DNA of 56,444 nucleotides from a virus (Duplodnaviria > Caudoviricetes): positions 1-56,444 of the IMG/VR virus record IMGVR_UViG_3300045557_000058; one strand, written 5' to 3'. Both the position numbers and the translations under genes were made by a program. Of this stretch, positions 5,301 to 37,909 are shown piece after piece. The notes beneath the pieces were generated by a model. It did no database searches. It saw only the letters and a program-made list of their open reading frames with translations, and was not told the DNA's origin. Position 1 is the first letter of the stretch; the number at the start of each line of letters is the position of its first letter.

Positions 5301-8300
5301 AGCCCAAACTCCAACGGAGCAAATTCAGCGCTTCTTGGTAACGTGGAATATTTGCGCGAAGCATACGCCCAAAAACGCTTCAAGCTGTCTCGCAGTTTTT
5401 CGCCGGTTGGAATCTCCGGAACTTCCGATGATTGTTCAAACTCGAAAGCGACACCGCGATCCATCCCTGGAATTACCGGTTCAAACGATTCAGGAACTTC
5501 CCTTTTAACCGTTTCTGGCTTAACAAGTATTTTTGTTCCCCGACCGGTATCCCGAGATATCCAGCCGCTTTCGACTAGCTGCTCAACGGTTTTCTTTCCG
5601 CCGGCGTCTGCGTCGGCAGGAATCACAACCGTACTTGCCTCGATTCTTTGACCACCAAGACGAATGGCGCCGCGATTATTGTTTACTGTTTTTTTGACTT
5701 CACGCCAAACTTTTACCATTAAATGCTGAAACTTGCTCCACAAATCTCCGAGCACTTCCCGCATTTTCTGCATCCATTTTCCGCCGTTGGTGATCCCGGA
5801 TTCGTAGGCGGCGCGGCCAATCCTGACTAAATCACGCATTGCTTCTGGCGCTGTCATGTCATTGTGCTTAGAAAGCGCTGGAATTAAATGTGCGATATTA
5901 GCCGGGAATGAATACAAGACATTCGCATTACTACCGTCAAACGTGCCTCGATTGTTGATTGATTTGATTTGGGTTGGATCAAATGAAACGTACATTGTGC
6001 GAGGTTCCCCGGAATCGTCGTCGAGTGCGTTTTCAATAATCGCCCCGTCATGCCCATCGATAAAAGCTTTTTTTAGCTCCTGCTCAATCGTTACCCCGCC
6101 ATCATTTTTGTCAGTTATATATACCGGGTCTTTAATATCCAAATAGACCGGCATAACAACGGACTTACCGGTAATTATCTTTGCATTGTCGGCCCAATAC
6201 CTTGCGTGTTCTTCGTCTTGTGCAAAAAAGAATCCATAATCTGTACCCGTCCCTCTCCCGGAAGAAGAACCAAGCAACGAATCTAAAAACTCCGTGAACT
6301 CTTCTCCCGTCCCGTGATACACAATAAGCGGTTTTTTGTTGCTTCCAACCACTGCCGACGCCCTATCGTAGCCTGGATTATTGACGTGCTTCAGCAGTTC
6401 TGATACAGTAATGGTAGAACCTCTACTGTTGGGCAGATTATTCTGTCCTCGGGCCGGTCCTTGCGACTGGCTTACCGCTGATGACTGGACTTGGGCGCTC
6501 GCCGCCCATCCTTTCTGCGGAGTAGAGGGTTTTATTTTTATTGCCTCAAGGTAATATGGTTTTGCGCCTTGCGGTGTTTCTCTGACGCGAAGTTCCGCAA
6601 CGTACGGGTCGGACCCGATGTTTATTGGAGCGTACATTACGTGAACAAACGGAATCTGCTCGTTGTCGTGTTTATTGGTTTCCGTGGAATGAAGTATCGC
6701 GTTTTCGACAACATCACGCAAAGAGACGACAGATTGAATCGTTGGCAGGTCGTAGTGCTTGACTGCGTAGTGCGTCGTTTCGCTGATTGTTTTGTTGGAT
6801 ATTTCAAGCACCCATCCCGTGTCTTTATTGGCAACCGAGCCTTTTACGCTTCGCCTTGCCCATTCTCCGATGGCGGCGGCGGCGGTAGCAATATTCTTTG
6901 ATCTAGTAACTTCCATTCCGGTAATTTCGATTACTGGCACGGGAGTTTTTTCATTTTGTCGCCAATCGCCAAACCATGCTCTGAAAAACGGGGACTTCTC
7001 ACCAACGCTTTGCCAGTAATGATTTGCCCAGTGTTGAACCCACGGTTCTTGCAGCATTTTGCTGGACATTTTTGCAACAGAAACATGTTGCGTTCCGGAA
7101 GGGGCTGGCGCAAATATTCTCGTAGCTCCGGCATTATCTTTTGCGACTCGCTTGACTTCGTTCCATACCTTGCCCATAACGTTTTTGGCCTTGCCCCACA
7201 AATCGCCCAGCAACTCTTTCATTCTGGCCATCCATTTGCCGCCGTGCGATGTTTCTGCATATACTTTGCGGCCAATAGCAACAAGATCATTGAACGCTTC
7301 CTTGACGGTCATATCGGAGTATTTGCGAAGCCCGGGGATAAGACGGAACGGGTCGACGCCGGAGCTAAGTTGCGACAGCATCGCGCTTGCTTCTGTCCGG
7401 TTCACGTCGGCTACAGGATAGCTATCGAACAGATTATTAAGCGTCGTTTCGCCGTCTTTGCCGACAGGAACGAAATACCTGGTCACGTAATTTACGCGCT
7501 CAGTAAATACGCCTGCCCTTCTAACGATATGGTCGAAGCGCGGCAAGTCATATTTCGGGCTTGTCAGTTCAATACGGTAATCACCAGACACCCTTGCCCT
7601 GCTCAATCTCCATCCATTTGCCAGTGTTACAGTCGATGCGTTATCAATGATCTCCGTTATGGCATCTGCAGGGGATACTGTTGACGTTTCCTTGTCGACG
7701 CCAAGACGGGATAATACGTTGTTGATATCTTTGTCATTAATTCTCCGGCCAAGATACCGGCTGCCGTCTACCGTCTGGACACGAACAACCCTGTTTGTCG
7801 TTTCGGGTAGTCTGTCCCATATTGGCAGTATGGCGCCGGTAATAAGGTGGATTGTTTCGTCGATATATTCCGGGGTTTCGCTATAGGCTTTTTCCCACTG
7901 TGTTGCCGCTTCGTCCGGATCGAGCTTTACCCAATTTGAGTTCTTCTCAAATTCGGCTTTAGTTACTTCGTTCGTCTGCGTGATCGACGGGCCACGCAAC
8001 CGAACAGCAGCCTCAACACTACCGCTGCTATAAGTTCTATTTCCAGCATCGAAAGCAGCCCAGACCTTTCCACTCTTGGCGTTTTGGAAAATGCCGATGA
8101 AGTTTTTCTGCGCCGTTGCGTCGCCGTGCGTCATGCGTTTATTTTTATGTTTGGCAATCAGTTTGGCGTATTTCGTTTCGGCTCCGCCCTTTGCGGTGTG
8201 AACGATTCTCTCTGATTCCAGTTCAACTTTGTCGGCACGGAAGTTTTGCAGACCCGTTTCATAAGTTCCGCTAGCAATTGCAGCATCGATATTGCGCACC

Positions 8301-11300
8301 ATTCTTTCATGGAACGCGTTAAACACGGTGTTCTGATCTTCCTTTTCCAGTGACAGTATCCGGTTAAGGAATTTGTTTATATCGCGGAGCTCGTCAGTCT
8401 GCTTTAGGCTTCCCTTGTCGTCGAGAATCTTGGAAAGGCCCATTTTAGCGAGAATATCCTTTGCATCTAGCCCCGGAACATTCCCTCTAATCAAGTCAGT
8501 ATAGAATTTTTCCATAGCGTCGAACGCATAGAAGCCTTCCAGGTTATCCGTGTCCTTGAACATACCTTGACCGCCAGTTTGTCGCTGCCCTCTGGTAAGG
8601 GCTCCGAGCTGATCAAGCCGCCGTGCGATCGAGGAGACGAATCTCTTTTGCCCCATAAGGTCAGTAGTAACCAGCACATAATGCGGCGCCGATACCTGAT
8701 TTGTTCTGTGGGTGCGGCCAAAACCCTGAATAGCTTTATCCGCTCTCCAACCGGGCTGCAGCAAATAGTGAACGCGCCTGTTTTGATTTTTAAAGTTGCG
8801 ATCAGCGTGATAGCTGCGTCCAGTTCCGCCGGCATCGGAGAAAACAAGAATTGGCTTCTTGCCGTTGATAAACAAGTCGGCGTCGGCCTCCGCGATCACC
8901 TTGCCGCGCCGCTGCTCTACCATTTTTGTTTGACCGGTTTTATCAGCGACGCGAACAAAGCGGCGGCTTCTGCCGGTAACTTCGGCAACCTTTTCATCAC
9001 CAAAAGTATTCAATAGAATTTCGAGAGGTCCGTCCGGAACGCGAATTGATCCGAGTTCGTCAAGGAGTCTTTCTCGCAGCGCGACAGCTTCCTTACTGAC
9101 AACCGGATTTCCTTTCGAGTCAAAGACAGGCCGCGTTCTCATGTTTCTGTTTTCATCCATGTACTGCTCAAACACTTGAACAGGGAAGGATTTTTCAAGG
9201 AAGTTCATCAACGCCTCTCTTGGCGTCAAATCCAAGTCCTCTAATGTTTCGTTTTCTTCCAGCTGCGCTGCCTTGCGGTTCGTTTCGGCCTCGTTTGTAT
9301 TCACCAGCTGCAGCACAACCGAATTGCCGTCTTTGATATCTTTCGATATCGATTCAATAACTGACGGCATTTGCATGGACGTAATGACCTGGTTAAAGAA
9401 CCGCTGATTTGCGCCCCAGAACGCCGACATAATCCGGCCTTTTGCCATGCCGTTTTTACTACCGGAAGATTTGTTTTCCATTCCGGTTATTTCTACGGCC
9501 TTTTCGATATTCTGCAACACAATTTGCCACGCGTTGGCCAGTTTGTTGTAGATATCGGTTTGCTCCAGTGTGAGCTTATGTTCCAGCGTTCCATAGGTAA
9601 CACCATCATAAGACAAAGAACGTTGGATATAACTACCCAACGCCTTCATATCTCTGGCGACAAGTTCCATTGCGGCAAGCCCGCCGCTCTCAATGCTGGA
9701 AATGAAATGATCACGCGAAGCAAAAGGAGTGCCTTCGCCCCATAATCCGAGGCGTTCCATGTACGACAGGTTTGATACTTTTGTCGCACCGGTCGCCGAG
9801 ACATAAAGAATCCGCGCTTTGGGCAGCATTTTTTGCAATTCAATACCGGCAAGCCCCGTTTGCGACGCGTTCTTTGTCCCTCTGGCGCCCTTTTCGCTGA
9901 CGGCGTTTTGCATGTTGTGCGCTTCATCAAAGACAACAACACCGTCAAAGTCAGGTCCGAGCCACTTGGCAATTTGTTCGAGCCGGGATTCCTTGCCTTC
10001 CTTCTTTTTAATTCCACCATCCGGAGCAACTTCTGCGCCGATGGTGAGAAGTTTGTAAGTGGAAAACAGGATACCGGTTTTTTGTTTGATATCACCCTTG
10101 ATTTTAGCCAATTCAAAAACGTCCTCTTTATCCTGCCCGATGCCGGACCAATCGCGCCTTGCATCGATATAGAGAGAGGGCTTTTCTGAAACCCAAACCG
10201 CCTTTTTGCGTCCGTGGCCGAAGTTGTCCAAGATTATGCCGGAAATTTCACGGCCCTTGCCAACACCGGTGCCGTCGCCGATCATGAAACCTTTTCGTAG
10301 TCCGCTCGGCAAAATCTGTTCATGAGCCTGTCCTGCGTATACGATTGACTCTAACTGTGCTTCGGACAACAACCCATTATCAATAACAGACTTTGGCAGT
10401 TTTGGGGCGTATGTTGGTAACGGCGGCTCTACAGAAGCCATTGCTGCGCTCTGGACAAGTGGCGACGGATGTTTTTTCGCCCCAGGAATCGAAAGGCGCT
10501 GCGGCTTGTACGAATCGTAAATGCTATCCGTAAGCTCGCCTTTTTGTTTCTCCTGATCTTTAGTTACAACGCCCAAAGAAATAGGGGCCGCTTCCGCGTC
10601 CCCTACCAGCGTTCCGCCATGTATAGGTTTAGACTGTCCAGCAGCTCTGTCGCCGCCTGGTTGATCGTCTTTCCCTTTAGCCTGTCCTTGTCCACGTTTA
10701 GTGTTTTCATTATGGCCTCGGGTTCCCACGTTGTCAGTGCTTCCAGCTGTCCCGATATGTCCCTGTTTCGGTTTGGGTTGATTCTCAGGTCGTTCAGTCC
10801 GTATTCCATCAGACTGACTATCCCCAACATCGACATGTCCGGGCTGACGCCGGCTTTCGTCAGGAGTTTGATTGCGTCCCGATTCGCCCCGGCCTTGTTC
10901 ATCCAATCTATTTTCTGCCAATCTTGCATTTCTAATCGCCCCCAACATGTCTAGTGCGTCAATTACGTCGTTGTATGATGCGGTCTGCGTTTGCGTTGTC
11001 GGTCCGGTTTTGTCGATCACAATAATCCGATTATCAAACGTGGTGCCGTACTTGACGTATTTTTCGCCAGACAATGCGATATTTGCGCGAACGTTGTACT
11101 TACCTTTGACCTGTTTCCACCATTCGGCGTGAGCAGCCGTTTCTCCCAGCCCTTCACCGACAACGGCAACAAGCCGGCCTCCGTCATTGAGCCGCGAAAG
11201 TGCTTGGTCCAGGTGACGATATACATTCGCGGTTTTCCTCTCCCCGGCTACCCGTCCGGCCGTAGAAGAAAATGGAGGGTTCATAATTATTATATCAGGT

Positions 11301-14300
11301 TTCACGTCGTTTGGAAGAATATTGTCTAACTGTTCTGCATTTTCTCCAAAAACGCGATCAAATCCCATTGTGGAAATAATATCGCGGCGCCGCTCGGACA
11401 GCTCATTGACGATTGTTTTTGCGCCAGCAGTTTTTCCGTAAATCGCGATACCTCCAATTCCGGCGCTTGGTTCCAAAACGGTGTCGGCTGCGGTAATGTT
11501 TGCCGTCCAAGCAACCGCGAAAGCAAGGTCCGGGGGAGTAGAAAACTGCTGAAATTCATCCTGTTCTGCTGTCCGTTTGGTTTGTGTCGGCAGCTTTGCG
11601 ATAACTTCCTTGCGCAGCCGTTCAATGGTATTTTGGGCGTCGCTGGCCGTACCGGTTGGGTTGATTTTTTCGGATTCGATAAACTTGTTTACCCCGCGCT
11701 CCATCGCGTCGTATGCGTCCTTCGAAGTGTAGCGGCCTTCTGCCTGGGTACCGCCGAAATGTTTATCGGCTTCGGAAAACAGTTCGCGCCATGTGATTTC
11801 GTGACCTTCCTTAATCCACGACACTACCTTGTTGGAAAGTCGTGTTGTAGCCGCGGCGTAATCGCTTACCGATTCTTTTTCGCTCGTTTTTGCGACGCGA
11901 TCACTTTGTCCGCTATTCTGTCCACTTTGGGCAATAGGTGTTTTTATGCTTTCGGTGCCAGCGTTTTCGCTACCGCCTTCAAACAGCGCATCAACTTCCG
12001 GGTCGGCTGAGATTTCCGCATCGTTAATAGCATCAATCTTTTCGGCAGCGTATAAAAATTCTTCCTTGTTAGCGAGAACGAATCCTTTTCCATTATTGCC
12101 CATTAGGTGGTAAGCAAAAGCTGCACCTTGCGGCAATCTTCTGGCATTTCTGTATCCGCCATCTATTGCATAATCAATAAAGTCGGCGCGGCCAATAATT
12201 TCTCCGTTGTGATTAACCTTGATTGAATTGATTCGGTTGCGGCGATTTTCAGACTCGGTCTTCGAACGCTTTTCCGCTTTTGCAGCCATAAGTTTTTTAT
12301 GTTCTTCGGGGTATTTGTCTTGCAAATATTGCAGTCGCTCCCCTTGCTTGCGCGGGATTTTTTCTCCAGTGATCGCATCGTATGCCGCCATCCATCGAAC
12401 ATTATCGTTACTGATAAACGCATCGCGCAGCCCGGCATATTTTTCGTAAGAATCGCGTGCGTTCAATATTGTTTGCATGTATGAAAAGTTCAGGTCATAA
12501 AGATTTTTCCTCTCTGGGGTTGCCTTGTCGTATTTTATTGCTTTGCGATAAGCAACTTCTGCGTCTGTTTCTGGCTGAGCAGAAACATAGTTTGGGTTTT
12601 TTGATTCATATTGATCGTTTTTTGCTTTTTCAATTTCTTCAACAGAACTGCCGACAGCCGTTTTCTGGTCGGCAATGGCAGCCTCAACCTGTTCGCGTTC
12701 AAACCTCTCCGCGTACCCTTCCCGCGCTATGGATGGGTGTAGCATAACCTCTGACGGGCTAAGCAATCCACCGCTACGCTCTTTGGTTCCCCATCCTTCC
12801 TCTTTGTCGCGTTCAAGTGAGCGAATCATATCTTTCTTCCACGCCTGATAATGATCTTCATCGCTCATTTCAACCGCCGCGACAGCATCGGAAACACTTC
12901 CGGACTTAACGACGCCTTTCTTGCCTGTTTTCAGCGTGTTGCCCTGTTTTGTTTTGATCACGAACATAGAAGGATCGCTATCATCCACGACAACAAAGCC
13001 GTCGTCTTTCCCTGGGCGGGTAACGGTATCGCCAATATTGATTTTATCAGATTTTATTTCATGTTGCGGTTTGGTTGCGATTTCCGCTTCTTTTGTTGAT
13101 GTGATCGCTTTTTGGTTATTAATGGCAGCGTTTTGCAAGCGGTTCCATTTTTCAATTTCTGTTTTTTCCATGTTTTTGATAGCGCCATACGCAGACAAGT
13201 TATGGGCAGGGTTTATGTCGTACTTTGCGGCAAGCTCTTGATGGTACTGTTCAAATTCTTCTTTTGCAGACATTGGTTTCGCTGCAGATTCTTTTTTTAC
13301 CCAAGATTCCTTCGGTTTGTTTTTCATACTATCAAAACTAATACTGACAGTTTTGCCGTCAGCCATCTTGATTGCTATGCCGGATTTTGTAACCTTTGCA
13401 ACCATTCCGGAACCTTTACTGCTGGTTACTTTGTCGCCGACAGAAAACTGATTTTTGACTGTTGCGACAGATTCTTCTGCCGTTTTTGCAACCGTACTTT
13501 CTATTTCTCCCTGATTATTTATAGGTATAGTTTGTGAAATAGCTTTTTCAGCAGCCGAAGCCGCTTCCGCAACCGTGGTGAATTGGCCCAGGCTTTTGCC
13601 GTCACTGAGCGAAGATTCCCAAACGGCCTTGCCTTGTTCATCAACCGATTGAAACACGGCGGCTTTTGCCGTTTCAAAATTATCACCAACTACATCAAAA
13701 AACATTTCCGGCTCTCCCGGCATGGCGCCGGGGTCGATTTTCCACTTTGAATTAGGCGGGGATACGGGGGCTGCGTCGACTTCGTGCTTTTCCGGCTTCA
13801 TATTTACTGTAAAATCGCCGGGAGCCTCTATTTTATTGGCGTTTGCGGCTTTATCGCCAGGATTGCTAGTAACGTCTGTGTTTTCGGTCGGGAGGGGTAC
13901 AGTACCGGGGATATTTGACTTGTTTGCATGCGCGGACGGGTCTATGAACTCCGCAGGGACCGGCATTGTAATTTGTGTGCCATTTTGAGCAGTAAAAATA
14001 GCTTGTCCGTCCGGTGCCATGCCAGAAAAAGTTACATCACCGAATTGATCATCAGGAACAACGTCGCCGATTTTCAATTTCGGTTGCGCCGGTCCTTGTT
14101 CCGGCGTCTGCACTTGCGTCGGAGTATGAACCGGTCCTTGTGCCGGTATTGGTAACTGATTTTGAACAGGGCCGGACCCGCCGCCGGCAGCTCCCATAAC
14201 ACCGCCAAACAATCCACCGCCGGCAACAGCCTGTTTTGTTTGTGGATTCCATTTCGACGGATCGAGCGACCAGACAAATTCCTCTCCCTGTAGTGGAGTC

Positions 14301-15520
14301 TTGTTGGTTCCGGCGCCGGTAACACCAGAGCCGAATCCTTCTTGAAAAAATTCCTCGCCGCCGCCTTGTAATGCGCCGAATCCCATTTTGCGAGCGGTGC
14401 CGGTGATGATGTTTTTCGACGGAGAAAACAGGTTTACACCCTCGGCTGCGTTAGACGCGGCCAATAGGGGAATGTTAAGAGCGGTTTGCTTCCAGGCCCG
14501 AAGTTTTGCATCGTCGATTGTCGGGGCATGATCGGGATCGAAATCCCCTTTGCCGCCGTTCTGCTCGTACATTTGGCGCAGTTCACTTTTGGCCGTTTGC
14601 TTGTCGAACTCACTGGCGTTAGGATCACGCACCACGGCAATATAGCTATTCCATTTTGCCATTTCGTTGTAAGAGCCGCCGCCTTCTGTGAAAGCCTCCG
14701 GTACGGCAGAAAGGACTCTCGCAGCGACAAACGCCTTGCCGAAGTCTCCGATCTGTCCAACAGTATTTTGAAACGCTTTCTGTGCCAACGGATTCGACAC
14801 GATTTTCCCAATCGTTGCACGCCCGGCCGCCGTAGAAAGCGCAGCTTGTCCAAGTCTTGTGATCGCTGCTGTGGTAAGGGCCGCTCCCGACGCCGGCGCA
14901 ACTGCAGCCATCAACATCGATCCAGCCAAAAAAGGTAGTGACGATCCGGCAGCGTTCGCCATGAGCGACGTTGCGCGTCCGTCTGTCCAAAATTCAGGGG
15001 TAAGCATGTGACCAAACTCAAACGGCTTGGCAGACAGTGCGCGTTCCCCTGGTGTTTGTGGAAGGTTTTTGCTAAAATCGTCCATTTCGTCGGCAATCGC
15101 TCGACCGGTATCTTCAAAACCGAGCATGCGAAGCGCACCGCCGGCCCCGCCAACAACACCAGCAACACCACGATTGAACGATTTTCCAACGTCGCTCATA
15201 GTGAGATTGGTAAGCTCTCGCTGAGACGGCGCCTGCGTTATTTCTTCCATGCCAATTACAGATGTATCAACCGGAGGCGGTGGTACTTCATAATCGAGCC
15301 CGGCAACGGGGAGGGGAGTATTCCCCTCCGTTTGCCTAAACGAGCCCATGCTATCAGAAGCTACCGGCTTTATAAATGACGGCGGTGCAATATTGCTTTC
15401 CGCCTGTCGCAGCCCGCCCATTCCGGTATCAGCCGGAGCAGCCGGGGCCGGGTTTTTGAAAAAATCGTCCCAACTATCCATTTCGTTAATGTTGATCGTG
15501 CCGGTTCTTCTTTTTGCCAT
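2384..15520 (-). CDS. Giant polyvalent ejection/internal virion protein (DarB-like): adenine MTase fold + Strawberry-notch SF2 helicase + LPD3-like + ART-PolyVal-like + helical C-terminal domain
   Basis: 4378 aa; LEPSAGIGG (~11450-11480) and NPPF (~11275); GDGTGVGKGRE (~10250-10280), DEAH (~9920), QGFGRTHRTNQ; FRAWFGDW...VYHGT...GFFF...DPTQIKS; position after two ejection-type genes. Confidence 0.88.
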   Translation of the reverse strand: MAKRRTGTININEMDSWDDFFKNPAPAAPADTGMGGLRQAESNIAPPSFIKPVASDSMGSFRQTEGNTPLPVAGLDYEVPPPPVDTSVIGMEEITQAPSQRELTNLTMSDVGKSFNRGVAGVVGGAGGALRMLGFEDTGRAIADEMDDFSKNLPQTPGERALSAKPFEFGHMLTPEFWTDGRATSLMANAAGSSLPFLAGSMLMAAVAPASGAALTTAAITRLGQAALSTAAGRATIGKIVSNPLAQKAFQNTVGQIGDFGKAFVAARVLSAVPEAFTEGGGSYNEMAKWNSYIAVVRDPNASEFDKQTAKSELRQMYEQNGGKGDFDPDHAPTIDDAKLRAWKQTALNIPLLAASNAAEGVNLFSPSKNIITGTARKMGFGALQGGGEEFFQEGFGSGVTGAGTNKTPLQGEEFVWSLDPSKWNPQTKQAVAGGGLFGGVMGAAGGGSGPVQNQLPIPAQGPVHTPTQVQTPEQGPAQPKLKIGDVVPDDQFGDVTFSGMAPDGQAIFTAQNGTQITMPVPAEFIDPSAHANKSNIPGTVPLPTENTDVTSNPGDKAANANKIEAPGDFTVNMKPEKHEVDAAPVSPPNSKWKIDPGAMPGEPEMFFDVVGDNFETAKAAVFQSVDEQGKAVWESSLSDGKSLGQFTTVAEAASAAEKAISQTIPINNQGEIESTVAKTAEESVATVKNQFSVGDKVTSSKGSGMVAKVTKSGIAIKMADGKTVSISFDSMKNKPKESWVKKESAAKPMSAKEEFEQYHQELAAKYDINPAHNLSAYGAIKNMEKTEIEKWNRLQNAAINNQKAITSTKEAEIATKPQHEIKSDKINIGDTVTRPGKDDGFVVVDDSDPSMFVIKTKQGNTLKTGKKGVVKSGSVSDAVAAVEMSDEDHYQAWKKDMIRSLERDKEEGWGTKERSGGLLSPSEVMLHPSIAREGYAERFEREQVEAAIADQKTAVGSSVEEIEKAKNDQYESKNPNYVSAQPETDAEVAYRKAIKYDKATPERKNLYDLNFSYMQTILNARDSYEKYAGLRDAFISNDNVRWMAAYDAITGEKIPRKQGERLQYLQDKYPEEHKKLMAAKAEKRSKTESENRRNRINSIKVNHNGEIIGRADFIDYAIDGGYRNARRLPQGAAFAYHLMGNNGKGFVLANKEEFLYAAEKIDAINDAEISADPEVDALFEGGSENAGTESIKTPIAQSGQNSGQSDRVAKTSEKESVSDYAAATTRLSNKVVSWIKEGHEITWRELFSEADKHFGGTQAEGRYTSKDAYDAMERGVNKFIESEKINPTGTASDAQNTIERLRKEVIAKLPTQTKRTAEQDEFQQFSTPPDLAFAVAWTANITAADTVLEPSAGIGGIAIYGKTAGAKTIVNELSERRRDIISTMGFDRVFGENAEQLDNILPNDVKPDIIIMNPPFSSTAGRVAGERKTANVYRHLDQALSRLNDGGRLVAVVGEGLGETAAHAEWWKQVKGKYNVRANIALSGEKYVKYGTTFDNRIIVIDKTGPTTQTQTASYNDVIDALDMLGAIRNARLAENRLDEQGRGESGRNQTPDESRRQPGHVDVGDSQSDGIRTERPENQPKPKQGHIGTAGSTDNVGTRGHNENTKRGQGQAKGKDDQPGGDRAAGQSKPIHGGTLVGDAEAAPISLGVVTKDQEKQKGELTDSIYDSYKPQRLSIPGAKKHPSPLVQSAAMASVEPPLPTYAPKLPKSVIDNGLLSEAQLESIVYAGQAHEQILPSGLRKGFMIGDGTGVGKGREISGIILDNFGHGRKKAVWVSEKPSLYIDARRDWSGIGQDKEDVFELAKIKGDIKQKTGILFSTYKLLTIGAEVAPDGGIKKKEGKESRLEQIAKWLGPDFDGVVVFDEAHNMQNAVSEKGARGTKNASQTGLAGIELQKMLPKARILYVSATGATKVSNLSYMERLGLWGEGTPFASRDHFISSIESGGLAAMELVARDMKALGSYIQRSLSYDGVTYGTLEHKLTLEQTDIYNKLANAWQIVLQNIEKAVEITGMENKSSGSKNGMAKGRIMSAFWGANQRFFNQVITSMQMPSVIESISKDIKDGNSVVLQLVNTNEAETNRKAAQLEENETLEDLDLTPREALMNFLEKSFPVQVFEQYMDENRNMRTRPVFDSKGNPVVSKEAVALRERLLDELGSIRVPDGPLEILLNTFGDEKVAEVTGRSRRFVRVADKTGQTKMVEQRRGKVIAEADADLFINGKKPILVFSDAGGTGRSYHADRNFKNQNRRVHYLLQPGWRADKAIQGFGRTHRTNQVSAPHYVLVTTDLMGQKRFVSSIARRLDQLGALTRGQRQTGGQGMFKDTDNLEGFYAFDAMEKFYTDLIRGNVPGLDAKDILAKMGLSKILDDKGSLKQTDELRDINKFLNRILSLEKEDQNTVFNAFHERMVRNIDAAIASGTYETGLQNFRADKVELESERIVHTAKGGAETKYAKLIAKHKNKRMTHGDATAQKNFIGIFQNAKSGKVWAAFDAGNRTYSSGSVEAAVRLRGPSITQTNEVTKAEFEKNSNWVKLDPDEAATQWEKAYSETPEYIDETIHLITGAILPIWDRLPETTNRVVRVQTVDGSRYLGRRINDKDINNVLSRLGVDKETSTVSPADAITEIIDNASTVTLANGWRLSRARVSGDYRIELTSPKYDLPRFDHIVRRAGVFTERVNYVTRYFVPVGKDGETTLNNLFDSYPVADVNRTEASAMLSQLSSGVDPFRLIPGLRKYSDMTVKEAFNDLVAIGRKVYAETSHGGKWMARMKELLGDLWGKAKNVMGKVWNEVKRVAKDNAGATRIFAPAPSGTQHVSVAKMSSKMLQEPWVQHWANHYWQSVGEKSPFFRAWFGDWRQNEKTPVPVIEITGMEVTRSKNIATAAAAIGEWARRSVKGSVANKDTGWVLEISNKTISETTHYAVKHYDLPTIQSVVSLRDVVENAILHSTETNKHDNEQIPFVHVMYAPINIGSDPYVAELRVRETPQGAKPYYLEAIKIKPSTPQKGWAASAQVQSSAVSQSQGPARGQNNLPNSRGSTITVSELLKHVNNPGYDRASAVVGSNKKPLIVYHGTGEEFTEFLDSLLGSSSGRGTGTDYGFFFAQDEEHARYWADNAKIITGKSVVMPVYLDIKDPVYITDKNDGGVTIEQELKKAFIDGHDGAIIENALDDDSGEPRTMYVSFDPTQIKSINNRGTFDGSNANVLYSFPANIAHLIPALSKHNDMTAPEAMRDLVRIGRAAYESGITNGGKWMQKMREVLGDLWSKFQHLMVKVWREVKKTVNNNRGAIRLGGQRIEASTVVIPADADAGGKKTVEQLVESGWISRDTGRGTKILVKPETVKREVPESFEPVIPGMDRGVAFEFEQSSEVPEIPTGEKLRDSLKRFWAYASRKYSTLPRSAEFAPLEFGLTQLEHKKGVATDTTVKAIREIVSTLKNKKDYQIFSHKVVFDDLAADLAESPEYDLPFGLTKDNFQSQYDAVNAAVTPEIQQALDTRKQVWNDFKEKYANSMKAIGFDVEDRLKKGDTYFHHIVLDYAELKKRLDPVLGTQIRTPSYRGFLKSREGSTKNILTDYLQPEMEVMGQMMYDVEIAKVIKMVSDKYDIQSDLQRIATASNEHNTIKSLIDEQGEIEGIKSWNQLSKKQAMAMNRLAELAYNDELPNNGKFNDVLEALIVSHESQEQLDLPKNRLFAYLSWVMHTDNEAGKMTAGLMFKGLREKAAAIKERLGDEHLSWRDLVPEGYETWQPREGNIFYTGYTIPEHIAQGIADKAVSELGIPANQIRRAILQGGRRKEMVVPVEVASTLEEIVPAHAYRSWVLNGLTKLQGKWKQAVLQMPNRFLSYNFNNMVGDLDAVIAAQGTKAMKKTMTAARELYGVFYRGKEMSPHMQEWFNRGGFETLLQTQEAGKVNQLATFDRLMEREKKLSKLPFKVWQTYWQGARKATDFREAIMRYAKFLDYVEQMEGSGVPNEFGASDPASVMALDNRYDRAFKLSNELLGAYDSISEMGRDMRSFIWPFWSWKEVNATRYAQMIRNATVDSSTAQDVAGAIGGQALRRAPFAAVKAGAFMVKATFLWALIQTYNWWMWPEEERDLEDGVKYKMHIILGRDQDGKVRYAKASGALADLLGWVSLDTPMQHYDAWLSGRKSLKEIAADMAAAPTNIVLSGITPYFKVAAEMIYGESVFPDWRKPRPIRDKGLYLASSIALGNEYRSVFGLPSRGYSLIDWSVVKKSDPLQAAYYSFMGTKQRFMESKGKGEGFFNSPKSEALRNYKEALRYQDEQAAVKYLEQYKLAGGTKEGIERSMESMNPTAGLKVSERKEFLASLNPEDRRKMAMGQQYFDMVIARSGGTLSVTKKGVIDVKLKGVDLPSEKKPKKQNFF
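5657..5895 (-). repeat. Copy 2 of an ~80-aa internal repeat in the giant protein
   Basis: HLIPALSKHNDMTAPEAMRDLVRIGRAAYESGITNGGKWMQKMREVLGDLWSK...NNRGAIRL; approximate bounds. Confidence 0.85.
7115..7345 (-). repeat. Copy 1 of an ~80-aa internal repeat in the giant protein
   Basis: RLIPGLRKYSDMTVKEAFNDLVAIGRKVYAETSHGGKWMARMKELLGDLWGK...DNAGATRI; approximate bounds. Confidence 0.85.
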
Positions 15521-33966: not shown

Positions 33967-34159
33967 TTCAATACAGTAGTGCTTATCAACACAGGGATGA
34001 TGAACGGAAGTCTTTTTGTTATCTCGCTTTGCTCGGCCTTCGGCTCGCCCATCCGAAATTATTTGCCAAACAAACCGGTCTTTTCTGTCTCTCCCTGGTG
34101 GCAAATCATCATTTAAGCCCGTACTTTCGCCACTGTTAAAAATTACCTTCTATGCCCTA

Positions 34160-34189
34160 TTGACATGTATGTATGTACTAATGTACACT
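34160..34189 (+). promoter_or_regulatory. SigmaA/70-type promoter of the divergent island
   Basis: TTGACA (34160-34165), 18 bp, TACACT (34184-34189); spacer carries TGTA x3. Confidence 0.75.
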
Positions 34190-34195
34190 TTAATT

Positions 34196-34326
34196 AATTC
34201 AAAGGGGCTCCTTGACAACTGAACCGGAACTGAACCAGCTGACAGGCTAGGCGAGCGGATGGGAACCTCTGAACCCCATTGGCCACGACCCGAACCAGCG
34301 CAGCCAGGCAGAACCGGACATTCGTC
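34196..34326 (+). ncRNA. Candidate small RNA released by ribozyme cleavage, carrying six GAACC motifs
   Basis: No plausible sense ORF; GAACC at 34221, 34232, 34263, 34271, 34292, 34311; 5' end inferred from promoter, 3' end from hammerhead cleavage site. Confidence 0.45.
34207..34224 (+). promoter_or_regulatory. boxA-like antitermination element
   Basis: GCTCCTTGACAACTGAAC resembles rrn/nut boxA (GCTCTTT(G/A)A(A/C)A); ~10 nt after predicted TSS. Confidence 0.5.
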
Positions 34327-34369
34327 ACCGGACACGGTTTGATAAGTCCCTGCAATGGGACGAAACGAA
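34321..34369 (+). ncRNA. Type III hammerhead ribozyme (U3-A8 core variant)
   Basis: Stem III TTCGT/ACGAA; GUC cleavage triplet (C34326); stem I ACCG-GACA-CGGT; core TTGATAA; stem II GTCCC-TGCAAT-GGGAC; GAAA. Confidence 0.88.
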
Positions 34370-34382
34370 GGGAGAGATTGAA

Positions 34383-34607
34383 ATGATTCAAAAGAAAATA
34401 GTGTCAGTGGTCCTACCTGGGTTCTACTCGGAAAACGCTGCCAAAAAGATCAAGCAAACTTTTACAAATGCCACATATATGAATTTCGTTATTGAGTACA
34501 GCAATTTCGCTAATAACTGCTCGATTACCGTCAGCACCGATTGCCCCAGAACAACAAAAAAGGAACTTTATGACATGTTCGTGTTCTGTGCGCTAAACAA
34601 CATTTGA
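34383..34607 (+). CDS. Hypothetical protein, first gene of divergent island
   Basis: 74 aa; SD GGGAGAG directly after ribozyme. Confidence 0.7.
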   Translation: MIQKKIVSVVLPGFYSENAAKKIKQTFTNATYMNFVIEYSNFANNCSITVSTDCPRTTKKELYDMFVFCALNNI

Positions 34608-34621
34608 AAGGAATGATTGAA

Positions 34622-34996
34622 ATGGCAAACAAAGAAATCCTGCAACTCATTAAGGAGCGCAAACAGCAAACCAGCGATCTCGTCAGATACGCCAACCCCA
34701 AAAGCAAGACTCGCCCCTGCATCGAAAGGGTACTGCAAATCGTCAGCGCCAAGATTCCATACAAAGGACTCACCCGCCCGGTAGTAACCAGCGCAGCCGT
34801 CACTTATTACAGTCGAAACCAAATTATCAAGACAGCCCGCTTTCGCGTCGAAACTGCTTTCCACGGTGCATGGGAAATATCAGCTTATCAACACCTGAAA
34901 GGACGATCAAAGGAAGAGCGGCAGGCAGACAATAACAGCACATTCCCGAGCGGGCTCTTCACCATCTTCGCAGACAGAATTAAGGAGGGTGTTTGA
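34622..34996 (+). CDS. Hypothetical basic protein
   Basis: Start refined to ATG 34622 (SD AAGGA). Confidence 0.65.
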   Translation: MANKEILQLIKERKQQTSDLVRYANPKSKTRPCIERVLQIVSAKIPYKGLTRPVVTSAAVTYYSRNQIIKTARFRVETAFHGAWEISAYQHLKGRSKEERQADNNSTFPSGLFTIFADRIKEGV

Positions 34997-35207
34997 AATG
35001 GCAATGACGGAAAAAGGAATCTCAACCACGATCTCACCGGGACAAGAGCAATATGAAACCTTCAAAAGTCACCTGAACAAAAAACCTTACGTCATGTACG
35101 ACTACCGCGATCACGACGGGCAGCTCTTCTCCTGCGTTCGCCCTACTCTCAGCCAGTGCCGTACGGAACGAGATTATTGGCTGTCACGAAAGCAAGTAGC
35201 TTCATAG
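34989..35207 (+). CDS. DUF3873-like small protein
   Basis: GQEQYETF...YDYRDHDGQLFSCV.PTL..CR..RD.WL pattern. Confidence 0.6.
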   Translation: MFEMAMTEKGISTTISPGQEQYETFKSHLNKKPYVMYDYRDHDGQLFSCVRPTLSQCRTERDYWLSRKQVAS

Positions 35208-35276
35208 GCAGGGTGGGTTTAGGCCCTGTGCGGCGCCGGGAGGCGCGTACCCAAAAAATCTAAAAGGGGTGTTGTT

Positions 35277-35717
35277 ATGTATAATCTGCCAAAAGTTAAA
35301 GTCCAGCTCGTCAAAGACGGCAATATCAAAATTGAACAGCGCCCGGTGATTCTGTCGCCGGACGACGTAGCCGCGATCATGTACCCTGTCGTCGAACTGC
35401 TGGCTGAAGAACACAGTTACGCGCTGCTGCTAAACATCAAAAACCGCGTCAATGCAATTCACGAAGTCAGTATCGGCTCTCTTGGTGCAGCAATTATCCA
35501 TCCGCGTGAAGTATTCAGGGCGGCGATTTTATCAAACGCTGCATCCATTATCTTGGTCCATAACCATCCCAGCGGCGACCCGACGCCCAGCCCCGAAGAT
35601 GTAGATTTGACAAAAAGATTGGTTGAAGCCGGATCCTTGATTGATATCCCTATACTGGATCATATCATCGTCTGTCCTGGGCGGTATGCTAGTTTAAAAG
35701 AAAGGGGCGTGTTGTAA
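35277..35717 (+). CDS. radC: RadC-like JAB/MPN domain protein
   Basis: HPREVF, ILVHNHPSGDPTPSPED, LDHIIV; JAB domain only. Confidence 0.92.
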   Translation: MYNLPKVKVQLVKDGNIKIEQRPVILSPDDVAAIMYPVVELLAEEHSYALLLNIKNRVNAIHEVSIGSLGAAIIHPREVFRAAILSNAASIILVHNHPSGDPTPSPEDVDLTKRLVEAGSLIDIPILDHIIVCPGRYASLKERGVL

Positions 35718-35718
35718 C

Positions 35719-35916
35719 ATGGAAGAAAAAAGCATCTTTGCAAACATCGATTTTCAAAACCCTGACGAATCATTTGACAAAGCAATCGAAGAAGGCCGGC
35801 TCTCTGCCGACAGGGACGCTGCAAACTACGCCGGAAACTATATGTACATGGGCCATGTTGAAGGCGTTGCACAGTTCAAACACATCGACACTCGCATCTA
35901 TCTGGGGAGGGATTGA
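35719..35916 (+). CDS. Hypothetical small protein
   Basis: 65 aa, coupled to RadC-like gene; YMYMG...FKHIDTR. Confidence 0.7.
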   Translation: MEEKSIFANIDFQNPDESFDKAIEEGRLSADRDAANYAGNYMYMGHVEGVAQFKHIDTRIYLGRD

Positions 35917-35917
35917 T

Positions 35918-36163
35918 ATGAACAACTATAGAATCGTGGTAAAAGCCAACGTCGGTTTTACCATCGCAGCCAGCAGCGAAGCCGAAGCGATTACCAAAGC
36001 AAACCTGTTCCGTGACGAAATGACCGAGATCAACACTGTCGAAAACATGATCATTGAAGATGATTCAATTTGCGGCCAGACCATCACCATATCCGGCGTT
36101 GCTGTTTACCTGGACGAAGAAATCACCGCTGACGATATCGAAGATACGGAGGAAGAATCATGA
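35918..36163 (+). CDS. Small acidic protein
   Basis: Start refined to ATG 35918 (SD GGGAGG); D/E-rich C-terminus. Confidence 0.7.
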   Translation: MNNYRIVVKANVGFTIAASSEAEAITKANLFRDEMTEINTVENMIIEDDSICGQTITISGVAVYLDEEITADDIEDTEEES

Positions 36164-36258
36164 CCAGAAAGCTGCTGCGCAAAGACTCTGACGCCCAAGA
36201 TTGGGAACTTTGTTTAACGTTCGTTGCTACCTTTTGCTTTCTTCTGGCCTGTCGGTAG
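36160..36258 (+). CDS. 32-aa peptide with hydrophobic C-terminus
   Basis: ATGA overlap with upstream stop, SD GGAGG; MTRKLLRKDSDAQDWELCLTFVATFCFLLACR; below ORF-track cutoff. Confidence 0.45.
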   Translation: MTRKLLRKDSDAQDWELCLTFVATFCFLLACR

Positions 36259-36306
36259 CAGGAAAACCTAGTTTAGCGATGAATACATACATAAAATAAA
36301 AAAGGA

Positions 36307-36789
36307 GTGTTGCAAATGTTTATGAATCTAAAAAACGGCGAACTGTCAATCAATACTTATCGGCTGCCGGACGCACTATCTGTCGAGCAAGAAGATGTAA
36401 TTGAAAACTTTTTAGGCGAAACAGGGAAAACAATGACCGCCATTGTCAGCATGACCGTCGAATATGAAGGGAAAACATATTACCTGGCACAACAAGCGTA
36501 CTGCGAAAATTACGGCACTGACGGCGAGGTCCGATACTATGCCGACGCTGTTGACGAAAACGGCGAACAATATAAGGTTGTTTGGGATACTACTGTTGCA
36601 TGGGATAACGGAAACGAAGTTGCTGCCATTGAAATGAAACTGAAAGATCGTCGGTATTTTACTGACGAAGAAGTTGCCAAAATGGAAGATCGGCTAAAAG
36701 AGATTGGCGATAACTATGCAGACATTGAAGATGAATCCGGTGCCTGTGATTGGGATAGCCCGGCAAACGTGTACAAATTAGGAGCGTGA
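36307..36789 (+). CDS. Acidic hypothetical protein
   Basis: 160 aa D/E-rich; SD AAGGAG; DES.ACDW motif. Confidence 0.7.
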   Translation: MLQMFMNLKNGELSINTYRLPDALSVEQEDVIENFLGETGKTMTAIVSMTVEYEGKTYYLAQQAYCENYGTDGEVRYYADAVDENGEQYKVVWDTTVAWDNGNEVAAIEMKLKDRRYFTDEEVAKMEDRLKEIGDNYADIEDESGACDWDSPANVYKLGA

Positions 36790-36793
36790 TATT

Positions 36794-36949
36794 GTGGGAA
36801 CTGCAAAAGTGCCTCGAACTATGAATTACCCTGCTGACGTTGATAAAATGCTGCAGGAAATTATGGCCAAAACCGGAGAAAATGCAACAGCCGTTGTCAT
36901 GCGGCTGATTCGCGAAGAAGCGCAGCGGGGCAACGCTAAAAAGGAGTGA
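36794..36949 (+). CDS. Ribbon-helix-helix (CopG/Arc-like) DNA-binding protein
   Basis: 51 aa MGTAKVPRTMNYPADVDKMLQEIMAKTGENATAVVMRLIREEAQ...: beta strand, helix, G turn, helix; below ORF-track cutoff. Confidence 0.7.
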   Translation: MGTAKVPRTMNYPADVDKMLQEIMAKTGENATAVVMRLIREEAQRGNAKKE

Positions 36950-36955
36950 TCCAAC

Positions 36956-37087
36956 TTGGATAATCCATATAACCCGCTCAATATTATTGTCGATCCATCA
37001 CTACCGCCCGGAACAATCAAAATTCGCAGCGGTAAAGAAACTTGGACCATAATCAACATTGAAACGCTAGAAACCGAAGAAAAGTGA
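36956..37087 (+). CDS. 43-aa hypothetical protein
   Basis: TTG start with SD AAGGAG; MDNPYNPLNIIVDPSLPPGTIKIRSG... Confidence 0.45.
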   Translation: MDNPYNPLNIIVDPSLPPGTIKIRSGKETWTIINIETLETEEK

Positions 37088-37145
37088 CCTCCTAGAATCG
37101 GTTTTAAGGCCCTTCTAATTTCTTCCGCTTATGTTTGTACCAATG

Positions 37146-37179
37146 AAAAAGCCCTCGGATTAACGTCCGGGGGCTTTTT
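37146..37179. terminator. Bidirectional intrinsic terminator between convergent transcription units
   Basis: AAAAAGCCCTCGGA-TTAACG-TCCGGGGGCTTTTT. Confidence 0.88.
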
Positions 37180-37184
37180 GCTAT

Positions 37185-37640
37185 TTATTGCGCATAGTGT
37201 TCGATTATGATCCCTTCTGTGTCGGACGGCGTTTCAAATTGTGCCATCATCCTGTCGATAATTGCAGGGTTTAGCCGACGCAATTCAGCGTTTCTCCGTT
37301 TGCACTCGTCTACCGAAGCTCGCACCCAATGAATCGTTACCGGACCCCATTTGCGCGACAGCTGCGTCCACATTCTCCGACGTTCCCTGGTAGTATTGGT
37401 CGCGTCGATGATAACCGCATATCCCTGCTCCAGCAGCGTATTCACCATGACCTGTGCGATTGCCCAAACCATCGGCTCTGCCTCTGGGATAAACTGCTGG
37501 CCGTGCAGCGCCAGCCTGATTGTGTCGGGGCAGACAACGACGGTATGGAGCGGGCTTACCGTGAGCTGCTTTGCCAGTGTGCTTTTCCCGCTACACGGCA
37601 ACCCTACCATGATAGCGACTCGCGAAACATATTCGCTCAT
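37185..37640 (-). CDS. P-loop kinase (AAA_33/polynucleotide kinase-like)
   Basis: GLPCSGKST, PDTIR, IIDATN...RR; start refined to ATG 37640. Confidence 0.85.
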   Translation of the reverse strand: MSEYVSRVAIMVGLPCSGKSTLAKQLTVSPLHTVVVCPDTIRLALHGQQFIPEAEPMVWAIAQVMVNTLLEQGYAVIIDATNTTRERRRMWTQLSRKWGPVTIHWVRASVDECKRRNAELRRLNPAIIDRMMAQFETPSDTEGIIIEHYAQ

Positions 37641-37909
37641 TCCGCTGCCTCGTATGTCGCAGCAAAGGTGTCGGCCTTGCAAGGATACATTTCGCTGTCA
37701 ATCCCAACGATAATATAATCCCCTTTATCGGCATGAAACCAGCCGGTTTTCGTTTCCACGTCGATGCCGTTGTGCTTGAACATGATCTCGCTATTTTCGT
37801 ATCCCTGGCGCACGCGCTCCGGCAGCGCGTCGTAGTCGTCTTGGTTTAGCCGCAGCAGTTCATCCACCGCATAGGCTTCAACAATGATCGGTTTCTTTTG
37901 GTACTTCAT
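37637..37909 (-). CDS. Conserved phage protein (KKPxxVEA...GDYI...YPCK family)
   Basis: MKYQKKPIIVEA, GDYIIVG..SEMYPCKADTF..TYE. Confidence 0.75.
   Translation of the reverse strand: MKYQKKPIIVEAYAVDELLRLNQDDYDALPERVRQGYENSEIMFKHNGIDVETKTGWFHADKGDYIIVGIDSEMYPCKADTFAATYEAAE

Follow-up and report, generated by a model that had tools for sequence, protein, structure and literature searches.

Does the 5′ leader of a small prophage operon encode a self-cleaving ribozyme and, if it does, what would cleavage mean for the mRNA that follows? The question is raised by IMG/VR record IMGVR_UViG_3300045557_000058, a provirus of 56,444 bases with an estimated completeness of 96%, which was analyzed at its full length and is referred to here as the window. 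Nearly all of its genes lie on the - strand, with the exception of a short + strand operon at 34383-37718, and an earlier description made from the letters of the DNA (the sequence-only reading) had placed a type III hammerhead ribozyme with an altered catalytic core directly ahead of the first gene of this operon. From its sequence, we conclude that the element is probably a genuine type III hammerhead self-cleaving ribozyme with a U3-A8 core, located in the 5′ leader of an accessory and oppositely oriented prophage operon. The ancestry of the motif is the firmer part of this answer: it very probably descends from a ribozyme, namely a hammerhead of the documented U3-A8 variant. That it also cleaves usefully in vivo is a prediction that we make with some, lesser, confidence.

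The motif occupies window positions 34321-34369 on the + strand, and its sequence matches the earlier description base for base. Its parts, together with the ribosome-binding sequence that follows, are listed below, where RF00008 denotes the Rfam family Hammerhead_3 (clan CL00010).

34321-34325, + strand: 5′ strand of stem III, UUCGU, pairing with ACGAA at 34365-34369; U34325 is U16.1
34326, + strand: C17, positioned from the RF00008 alignment; the predicted scissile bond is 34326/34327
34327-34338, + strand: stem I hairpin, ACCG (34327-34330) with CGGU (34335-34338), loop GACA
34339-34345, + strand: core strand UUGAUAA, i.e., U3 U4 G5 A6 U7 A8 A9, where the consensus is CUGANGA
34346-34361, + strand: stem II hairpin, GUCCC (34346-34350) with GGGAC (34357-34361), loop UGCAAU
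34362-34364, + strand: GAA, core G12 A13 A14, from the sequence and the RF00008 alignment
34365-34369, + strand: 3′ strand of stem III, ACGAA; A34365 is A15.1
34370-34376, + strand: Shine-Dalgarno (SD)-like GGGAGAG, beginning immediately 3′ of stem III

Helices III, I, and II consist of 5, 4, and 5 perfect Watson-Crick pairs, respectively, and follow the type III order, in which stem III is open and loops cap stems I and II; the cleavage triplet is GUC. Outside positions 3 and 8, all of the invariant core bases are present (UGA at 34340-34342, A9 at 34345, and GAA at 34362-34364), as are the A15.1-U16.1 pair (A34365-U34325), the G10.1-C11.1 pair (G34346-C34361), and H17 (C34326). The consensus C3 and G8 are replaced by U34339 and A34344, by which the 3-8 Watson-Crick pair is retained as U-A. 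Indeed, the RF00008 structure line pairs position 3 with position 8, and the U-A found there carries no non-standard flag. The sequence, the RF00008 alignment, and a descriptor scan all bear out the sequence-only reading of a type III hammerhead in which U3-A8 takes the place of C3-G8, and its remark that a literal search for CUGANGA would miss the element also holds, the core being UUGAUAA. The exchange has precedents, in that C3/G8 covary to U3/A8 in several natural hammerheads, and variants with covarying bases at these two positions have already been proven active in vitro (Perreault et al. 2011, PMC3088659). Loop 2, UGCAAU, resembles the RF00008 consensus and also the UGAGAU loops attributed to the hammerheads of peach latent mosaic viroid (PMC2632901).

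RF00008 aligns with 34319-34371 over its full model length with a score of 41.4 bits. The corresponding E-value is 1.3e-7 in a 601-nt search, 2.8e-9 in a single-family search of the record, and 1.2e-5 when the whole window is searched on both strands with all 4227 Rfam families; no other ribozyme match was obtained with all Rfam families in the window at E <= 5. A comparison with the Rfam hammerhead models had been suggested in the sequence-only reading, and it succeeded as regards the full-length match and its window-wide E-value, but not as regards the score, which lies under the curated gathering cut-off of 48.5 bits. Default Rfam annotation misses this copy for that reason, and a default gathering-threshold scan of the window reported nothing. 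The descriptor called for uninterrupted helices of 4 bp or more in type III order, together with U16.1, H17, GAAA, and a C3-G8 or U3-A8 core. Applied to both strands of the real window, it found 34321-34369 and no other site. Among 400 random windows that equal it in length and first-order Markov composition, also scanned on both strands, there was likewise one site, the core of which was canonical; no site had helices of 5, 4, and 5 bp. RF00008 was further run against 11 other viral records (~380 kb) with relatives of the operon genes, comprising nine of the ten loci that encode a homologue of the 130-residue product of the operon (L055 was left out) and two loci with DUF3873 (L019 and L020). 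It gave no match at E <= 0.1 in any of them, which argues that such scores are not background. As an isolated 53-nt piece, the element has a minimum-energy fold identical to the hammerhead secondary structure, at -16 kcal/mol, and compares with shuffled sequences at z -1.8, 9 of 200 shuffles being at least equally stable. Ensembles of the leader and of the precursor (34196-34430) were calculated with ViennaRNA, and in the precursor stems I and II are stable, with pair probabilities of 0.72-0.98.

The same core variant was sought elsewhere with gapped patterns that combine the U3-A8 core with a GUC...GAC stem II. Among the 16 stretches matched in IMG/VR, two have all three helices; these lie on contigs L004 and L008 and are identical in sequence. 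The 13 stretches in GTDB genomes include no convincing type III motif, and three of the 14 stretches in JGI metagenomes have all three helices (L034, L035, and L042). There are thus three further U3-A8 type III candidates with distinct sequences: L004=L008 (L004 9518-9568), L034, and L035/L042 (L034 1008-1058, L035 1324-1374, L042 821-871 (- strand)), where L035 and L042 have identical helices and downstream context and differ in loop 2. In all three, stem III is followed by an AGGAG-type SD and then by an ATG, which lies 25-30 nt past stem III, as compared with 13 nt in the window. Taken together with the window, these candidates indicate that the variant recurs directly before the ribosome-binding sites (RBSs) of small phage genes. 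The short contigs L034 and L042 resemble the gene arrays punctuated by ribozymes that are known from prophages: L034 has two pistol-like matches of 33.0 and 27.1 bits, below the cut-off of 34.5, and L042 has a second hammerhead-like match of 27.6 bits, also below the cut-off. As a separate observation, L034, L035, L042, and the window (34374-34383) have a common 10-mer, GAGATTGAAA, before the ATG at an offset of 2 nt, which may be due to chance.

The position of the element relative to the operon is well defined. It lies in sense orientation to the operon within a divergent intergenic region of 330 bp, downstream of a promoter match, and 13 nt separate the end of stem III from the start ATG at 34383. 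In the phage, 25 of 52 crude gene calls have an SD-like motif ahead of them, and GGGAGAG is therefore a credible RBS. The claimed location, in an intergenic leader, in sense orientation, and adjoining a plausible SD and ATG, is accordingly confirmed by the sequence. The spacing of 1 nt between stem III and the SD given in the sequence-only reading applies to GGAG, but for GGGAGAG, the motif it named, the gap is 0 nt. Its further proposal, that cleavage opens the RBS, finds no support in the ensembles: the mean unpaired probability of the SD is 0.88 in the precursor vs. 0.47 in the 3′ cleavage product, so that the SD is already mostly unpaired before cleavage and becomes less accessible after it. 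Unmasking of the RBS by cleavage was therefore rejected. Likewise, pairing of the SD with an anti-SD sequence (CUCCUU, 34208-34213) appears in one minimum-energy fold and is absent from the ensemble with longer 3′ context, and was discarded.

The features upstream of the motif that enter into its proposed mode of action are as follows.

34160-34189, + strand: predicted sigma-70-like promoter (TTGACA, 18 nt, TACACT), from a consensus scan with 10/12 matches
34196-34326, + strand: predicted 5′ leader, equivalent to the 5′ cleavage product and ending at C17

Judging from the predicted promoter, the transcript would start near 34196. Once transcribed, 34321-34369 would form a three-way junction in which, by the established hammerhead mechanism, the 2′-OH of C34326 would attack its own 3′ phosphate and cut the chain between C34326 and A34327. 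The ~130-nt leader would be released with a 2′,3′-cyclic phosphate, and the operon mRNA would begin with a 5′-OH at A34327, a nucleotide that is expected to be paired in stem I. The ribozyme body, with stems I and II, would then remain as a compact structured 5′ end directly before the SD and ATG. The likely role of cleavage would be to provide an mRNA 5′ end that is defined independently of promoter and leader and that sets stability and translation. This is how transcripts of phages and prophages are believed to be processed by hammerhead and twister ribozymes. The effect on mRNA stability could go in either direction. A paired 5′ end tends to protect mRNA. The 5′-OH product of the glmS ribozyme, for its part, is a substrate of RNase J1 and is degraded in Bacillus subtilis (PMC3997798).

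Several observations weigh against a genuine and active ribozyme at this locus. Apart from the score below the Rfam cut-off, stem I is short, with only 4 bp, stem III reaches a pair probability of only 0.23-0.29 in the full-leader ensemble, the predicted promoter is a consensus match only, and loops 1 (GACA) and 2 (UGCAAU) fit neither the UNmYN nor the RNnA motif. These loop motifs are typical of fast natural hammerheads, but not universal, both being matched in 16 of 27 (PMC2632901). With loops that deviate from the common tertiary-contact motifs, fast cleavage at cellular Mg2+ is uncertain. Moreover, no orthologous copy of the element was found in phage and plasmid collections, IMG/VR, GTDB genomes, or JGI metagenomes, and the locus therefore provides no evidence from covariation or conservation: the exact 27-mer comprising the core and stem II has no match in IMG/VR, and gapped core patterns yielded no copy with the stems of the element in IMG/VR, GTDB genomes, or JGI metagenomes. 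RF00008 itself, at E <= 10, lists one of the four other U3-A8 copies, that of L035 with 35.6 bits, and does not list those of L004, L034, and L042 at their places. Much of this would suit a hammerhead relic that is decaying or very slow and whose leader acts, if at all, only as structure. Such a relic would account for the low score, the atypical loops, the 4-bp stem I, the U3-A8 exchange, and the single copy for which no conserved orthologue was found, and some phage core variants, with changes other than those at 3-8, indeed have low or undetectable activity (PMC3088659). However, decay would be expected to strike the helices and the remaining invariant bases equally, yet the three helices are perfect and those bases are all intact, the two changes are exactly the compensating pair, and the other U3-A8 copies are likewise placed before an SD and ATG. 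We therefore regard a relic as unlikely. A chance resemblance without any ribozyme ancestry, which might be suspected of a short, single-copy motif under a curated cut-off, is highly improbable in view of the window-wide E-value, the single descriptor match in 400 random windows, none of which was equally good, and the location of the motif on the sense strand, in a leader, and adjoining an RBS.

A different kind of alternative concerns the leader rather than the ribozyme. Six copies of GAACC, all on the + strand, fall within 95 nt of the leader (34221-34315), beginning at 34221, 34232, 34263, 34271, 34292, and 34311, with start-to-start spacings of 11, 31, 8, 21, and 19 nt; three of the copies are CTGAACC. 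The whole 56 kb strand has 58 copies, giving a Poisson probability of ~1.5e-9 for at least six in 100 nt, and the cluster is the only unusual feature of the locus. In addition, an exact 8-nt direct repeat, ACCGGACA, occurs at 34313-34320 and 34327-34334, where the second copy supplies the 5′ strand of stem I together with its loop, and GAACCG at 34311-34316 could pair with CGGUUU at 34335-34340 in competition with stem I and the core. The repeats of both kinds could serve as an RNA-binding platform that gates the ribozyme, or belong to a released leader RNA. Such a gated ribozyme, in which binding to the platform or the alternative pairing would let a factor control cleavage and operon expression, gains some appeal from the density of the repeats, from the overlap of the 8-nt repeat with stem I, and from the folding of the leader, which shows no extra structure relative to shuffled sequences (z +0.37) and could thus leave the repeats accessible. 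On the other hand, the ensemble disfavors the alternative pairing, as reflected in the high probability of stem I in the precursor, and the repeats are equally explicable as DNA sites in the divergent region: they could bind a regulator or a packaging protein just upstream of the - strand module that runs toward the portal gene. We consider gating distinctly unlikely. A slightly bolder version, a two-part leader device in which the GAACC-repeat leader binds a phage or host factor and either gates the hammerhead or is freed as a regulatory or sponge RNA, is less probable still; if true, the competition between GAACCG and CGGUUU and the duplicated ACCGGACA would make this a protein-gated natural hammerhead. 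The U3-A8 hammerhead that cleaves the leader off the operon mRNA is therefore the reading that we retain.

The genetic setting is that of a prophage with genes for a portal, tail-fibre-like proteins, a DNA methyltransferase, a DnaC-like loader, and a YqaJ-like recombinase. Its lysis genes, for a glucosaminidase and an amidase, are at the left end, and a helix-turn-helix gene resembling that of a repressor is at the right end. The operon behind the hammerhead is composed as follows.

34383-34607, + strand: first open reading frame (ORF) of the operon, 74 aa, an orphan
34604-37718, + strand: rest of the operon, encoding a 130-aa protein, DUF3873, a RadC-like JAB protein, and three ORFs without assignment
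34604-34996, + strand: 130-aa family protein with 31 database relatives and no Pfam or PHROG match
34989-35207, + strand: DUF3873
35277-35717, + strand: RadC-like JAB protein

Among 5.8 billion clusters, the 74-aa protein matches only itself; neither Pfam nor PHROG has a match for it, and it has none in GTDB genomes and one marginal 15-residue match in IMG/VR (L002). The 130-aa family is characterized by a conserved LVRYANPKSK and FPSGLF signature, and some of its members are fused to a PF26096 domain; the closest homologues of the protein in the window are P0003 (86% identity) and P0004 (79%). DUF3873 might suggest a Bacteroidota host, which was rejected in view of the wide use of SD motifs and of the glucosaminidase and amidase lysis genes; these two features argue for a host of the Gram-positive type. 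The alignment of the 130-aa family gave no match in 400 genomes that belong to the same class as a Clostridia metagenome-assembled genome (MAG). Two side observations concern the remainder of the prophage. A weak His_leader match (37047-37182, + strand; 28.7 bits, cut-off 49, E 1.2) within a 540-nt gap inside the operon is probably noise. An ORF of 4378 aa (2384-15520, - strand), which takes up ~23% of the prophage, is a phage "polyvalent protein" with a Strawberry-notch-type helicase (AAA_34, Helicase_C_4), LPD3, and the ADP-ribosyltransferase of polyvalent proteins.

The operon genes were also used as handles for related loci. As DNA, 34100-35300 has no match in the phage collection and 34150-34400 none in the plasmid collection. 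Neither the 130-aa gene as a single query nor the portal gene has relatives in IMG/VR, DUF3873 led to L019 and L020, neither of which has a ribozyme match, and the alignment of the 130-aa family led to 10 viral loci, none with a hammerhead. PaP3, named in the 2011 paper for a core variant, has no Rfam hammerhead at E <= 0.1. Two of the 10 loci with a 130-aa homologue, L054 and L055, which are the same sequence from two samples, have a Twister-P5 ribozyme instead (2866-2918, + strand; 60.1 bits, cut-off 37.6). It begins inside the last codons of the 130-aa homologue and ends 27 nt ahead of the next ATG, with GGAGG in between. The occurrence of a hammerhead and a Twister-P5, which are unrelated classes, beside the same gene family fits the published gene neighborhoods shared by bacterial twister and hammerhead ribozymes, the reason for which is described as still open (PMC6765202).

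Hammerhead-like sequences of other kinds were encountered as well. The canonical core combined with the stem II pattern of the window matched 43 stretches with 52 motif instances in IMG/VR, mostly type I by eye. The viral contigs L078, L091, and L099 each have four hammerhead motifs within 1.6-2.9 kb, type I by eye, and the 16 nt of stem-loop II of the window (GUCCC UGCAAU GGGAC) are identical in two of the type I copies of L091. In four contigs of one Thermoguttaceae MAG (L022, L023, L028, and L031), a core-like element, UUGAUAA...GACGAAAC, is repeated in at least 7 copies. It fails the clean type III descriptor, one register giving a 7-bp stem I and a stem III of only 2 bp, and may represent a degenerate or differently permuted hammerhead family. 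On L004 (3439-3562) and L008 (7022-7145), moreover, tandem repeats of the GGGAGGUA type form a long hairpin with their complement, and this hairpin attracts spurious matches to microRNA families.

What does this copy add? Knowledge of the hammerhead class itself is unchanged by it, and its value is that it gives the U3-A8 core variant a clean example from a prophage. What hammerheads do in bacteria and phages has been described as largely elusive (PMC6765202), and in the literature on U3-A8 hammerheads and on hammerheads in prophages or at RBSs we found no study of the function of a leader ribozyme in a phage. With its one ribozyme at the start of a short operon and its predicted promoter, the locus would be a simple system in which to study the effects of 5′ self-cleavage on mRNA stability and translation.

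How, then, does the element compare with known systems? In terms of its proposed role, the nearest known functional analogue is RiboJ, a synthetic ribozyme insulator. Both RiboJ and glmS resemble the proposed role in that a 5′-leader ribozyme removes upstream RNA and leaves an mRNA with a 5′-OH. RiboJ differs in being engineered, whereas glmS has another fold and depends on a metabolite, and no ligand-binding element is recognizable in the window. In terms of its placement, the element is akin to the ribozyme-punctuated operons of phages and prophages, where hammerhead, twister, and pistol ribozymes are similarly intergenic and shortly precede the SD and ATG of small genes without assigned function, but the window has a single ribozyme at the operon head.

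A close likeness in sequence is to a canonical type III hammerhead on contig L094 (3447-3499, - strand; 63.3 bits with RF00008). The two have an identical stem II, loops II that agree in 5 of 6 bases (UGAAAU vs. UGCAAU), the same inner three stem III pairs (A-U, C-G, and G-C), and a short stem I capped by a tetraloop, and both are intergenic, L094 being a phage-like contig that uses SD motifs. The copy of L094 differs in having a C3-G8 core with C at N7, U-A in place of A-U at 1.1-2.1, and stems I and III that are each longer by one whole pair; it also lies between two genes, ~60 nt before the next ATG, and not in the leader of a first gene, and no gene is common to the two loci. Differences by a pair swap and by whole-pair additions are the pattern expected of related functional hammerheads and, as no genes are shared, they constitute evidence at the level of the family and not of orthology.

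With the natural U3-A8 variants already described, the window shares the compensating 3-8 exchange in an otherwise intact core (PMC3088659, PMC4209133). The ~1,300 U3-A8 matches reported for Penelope-like elements (Cervera and de la Pena 2014, PMC4209133) are, in contrast to the window, minimal hammerheads in eukaryotic retroelements and not part of a prophage mRNA leader. In bacteria, hundreds of hammerheads have been located near prophage genes, often flanking single genes (PMC3088659). The arrangement of the window is also seen in HHphage of the haloviruses HF1/HF2, a hammerhead variant located 13 nt ahead of the first start codon of an early polycistronic transcript, for which a 5′ end has been mapped no more than 3 nt away from the cleavage site (PMC3088659). 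The distance to the start of the first gene is the same in the window, where the 13 nt are counted from stem III to the ATG. HHphage differs in that it belongs to an archaeal virus, has a variant architecture that needs very high Mg2+, and is not described as U3-A8 in the Discussion of that paper. Since PMC3088659 already reports natural U3-A8 covariation as well as a hammerhead located 13 nt ahead of a start codon, the novelty claimed in the sequence-only reading was overstated: the element is a solid new example of a known ribozyme class, and not a new kind of element.

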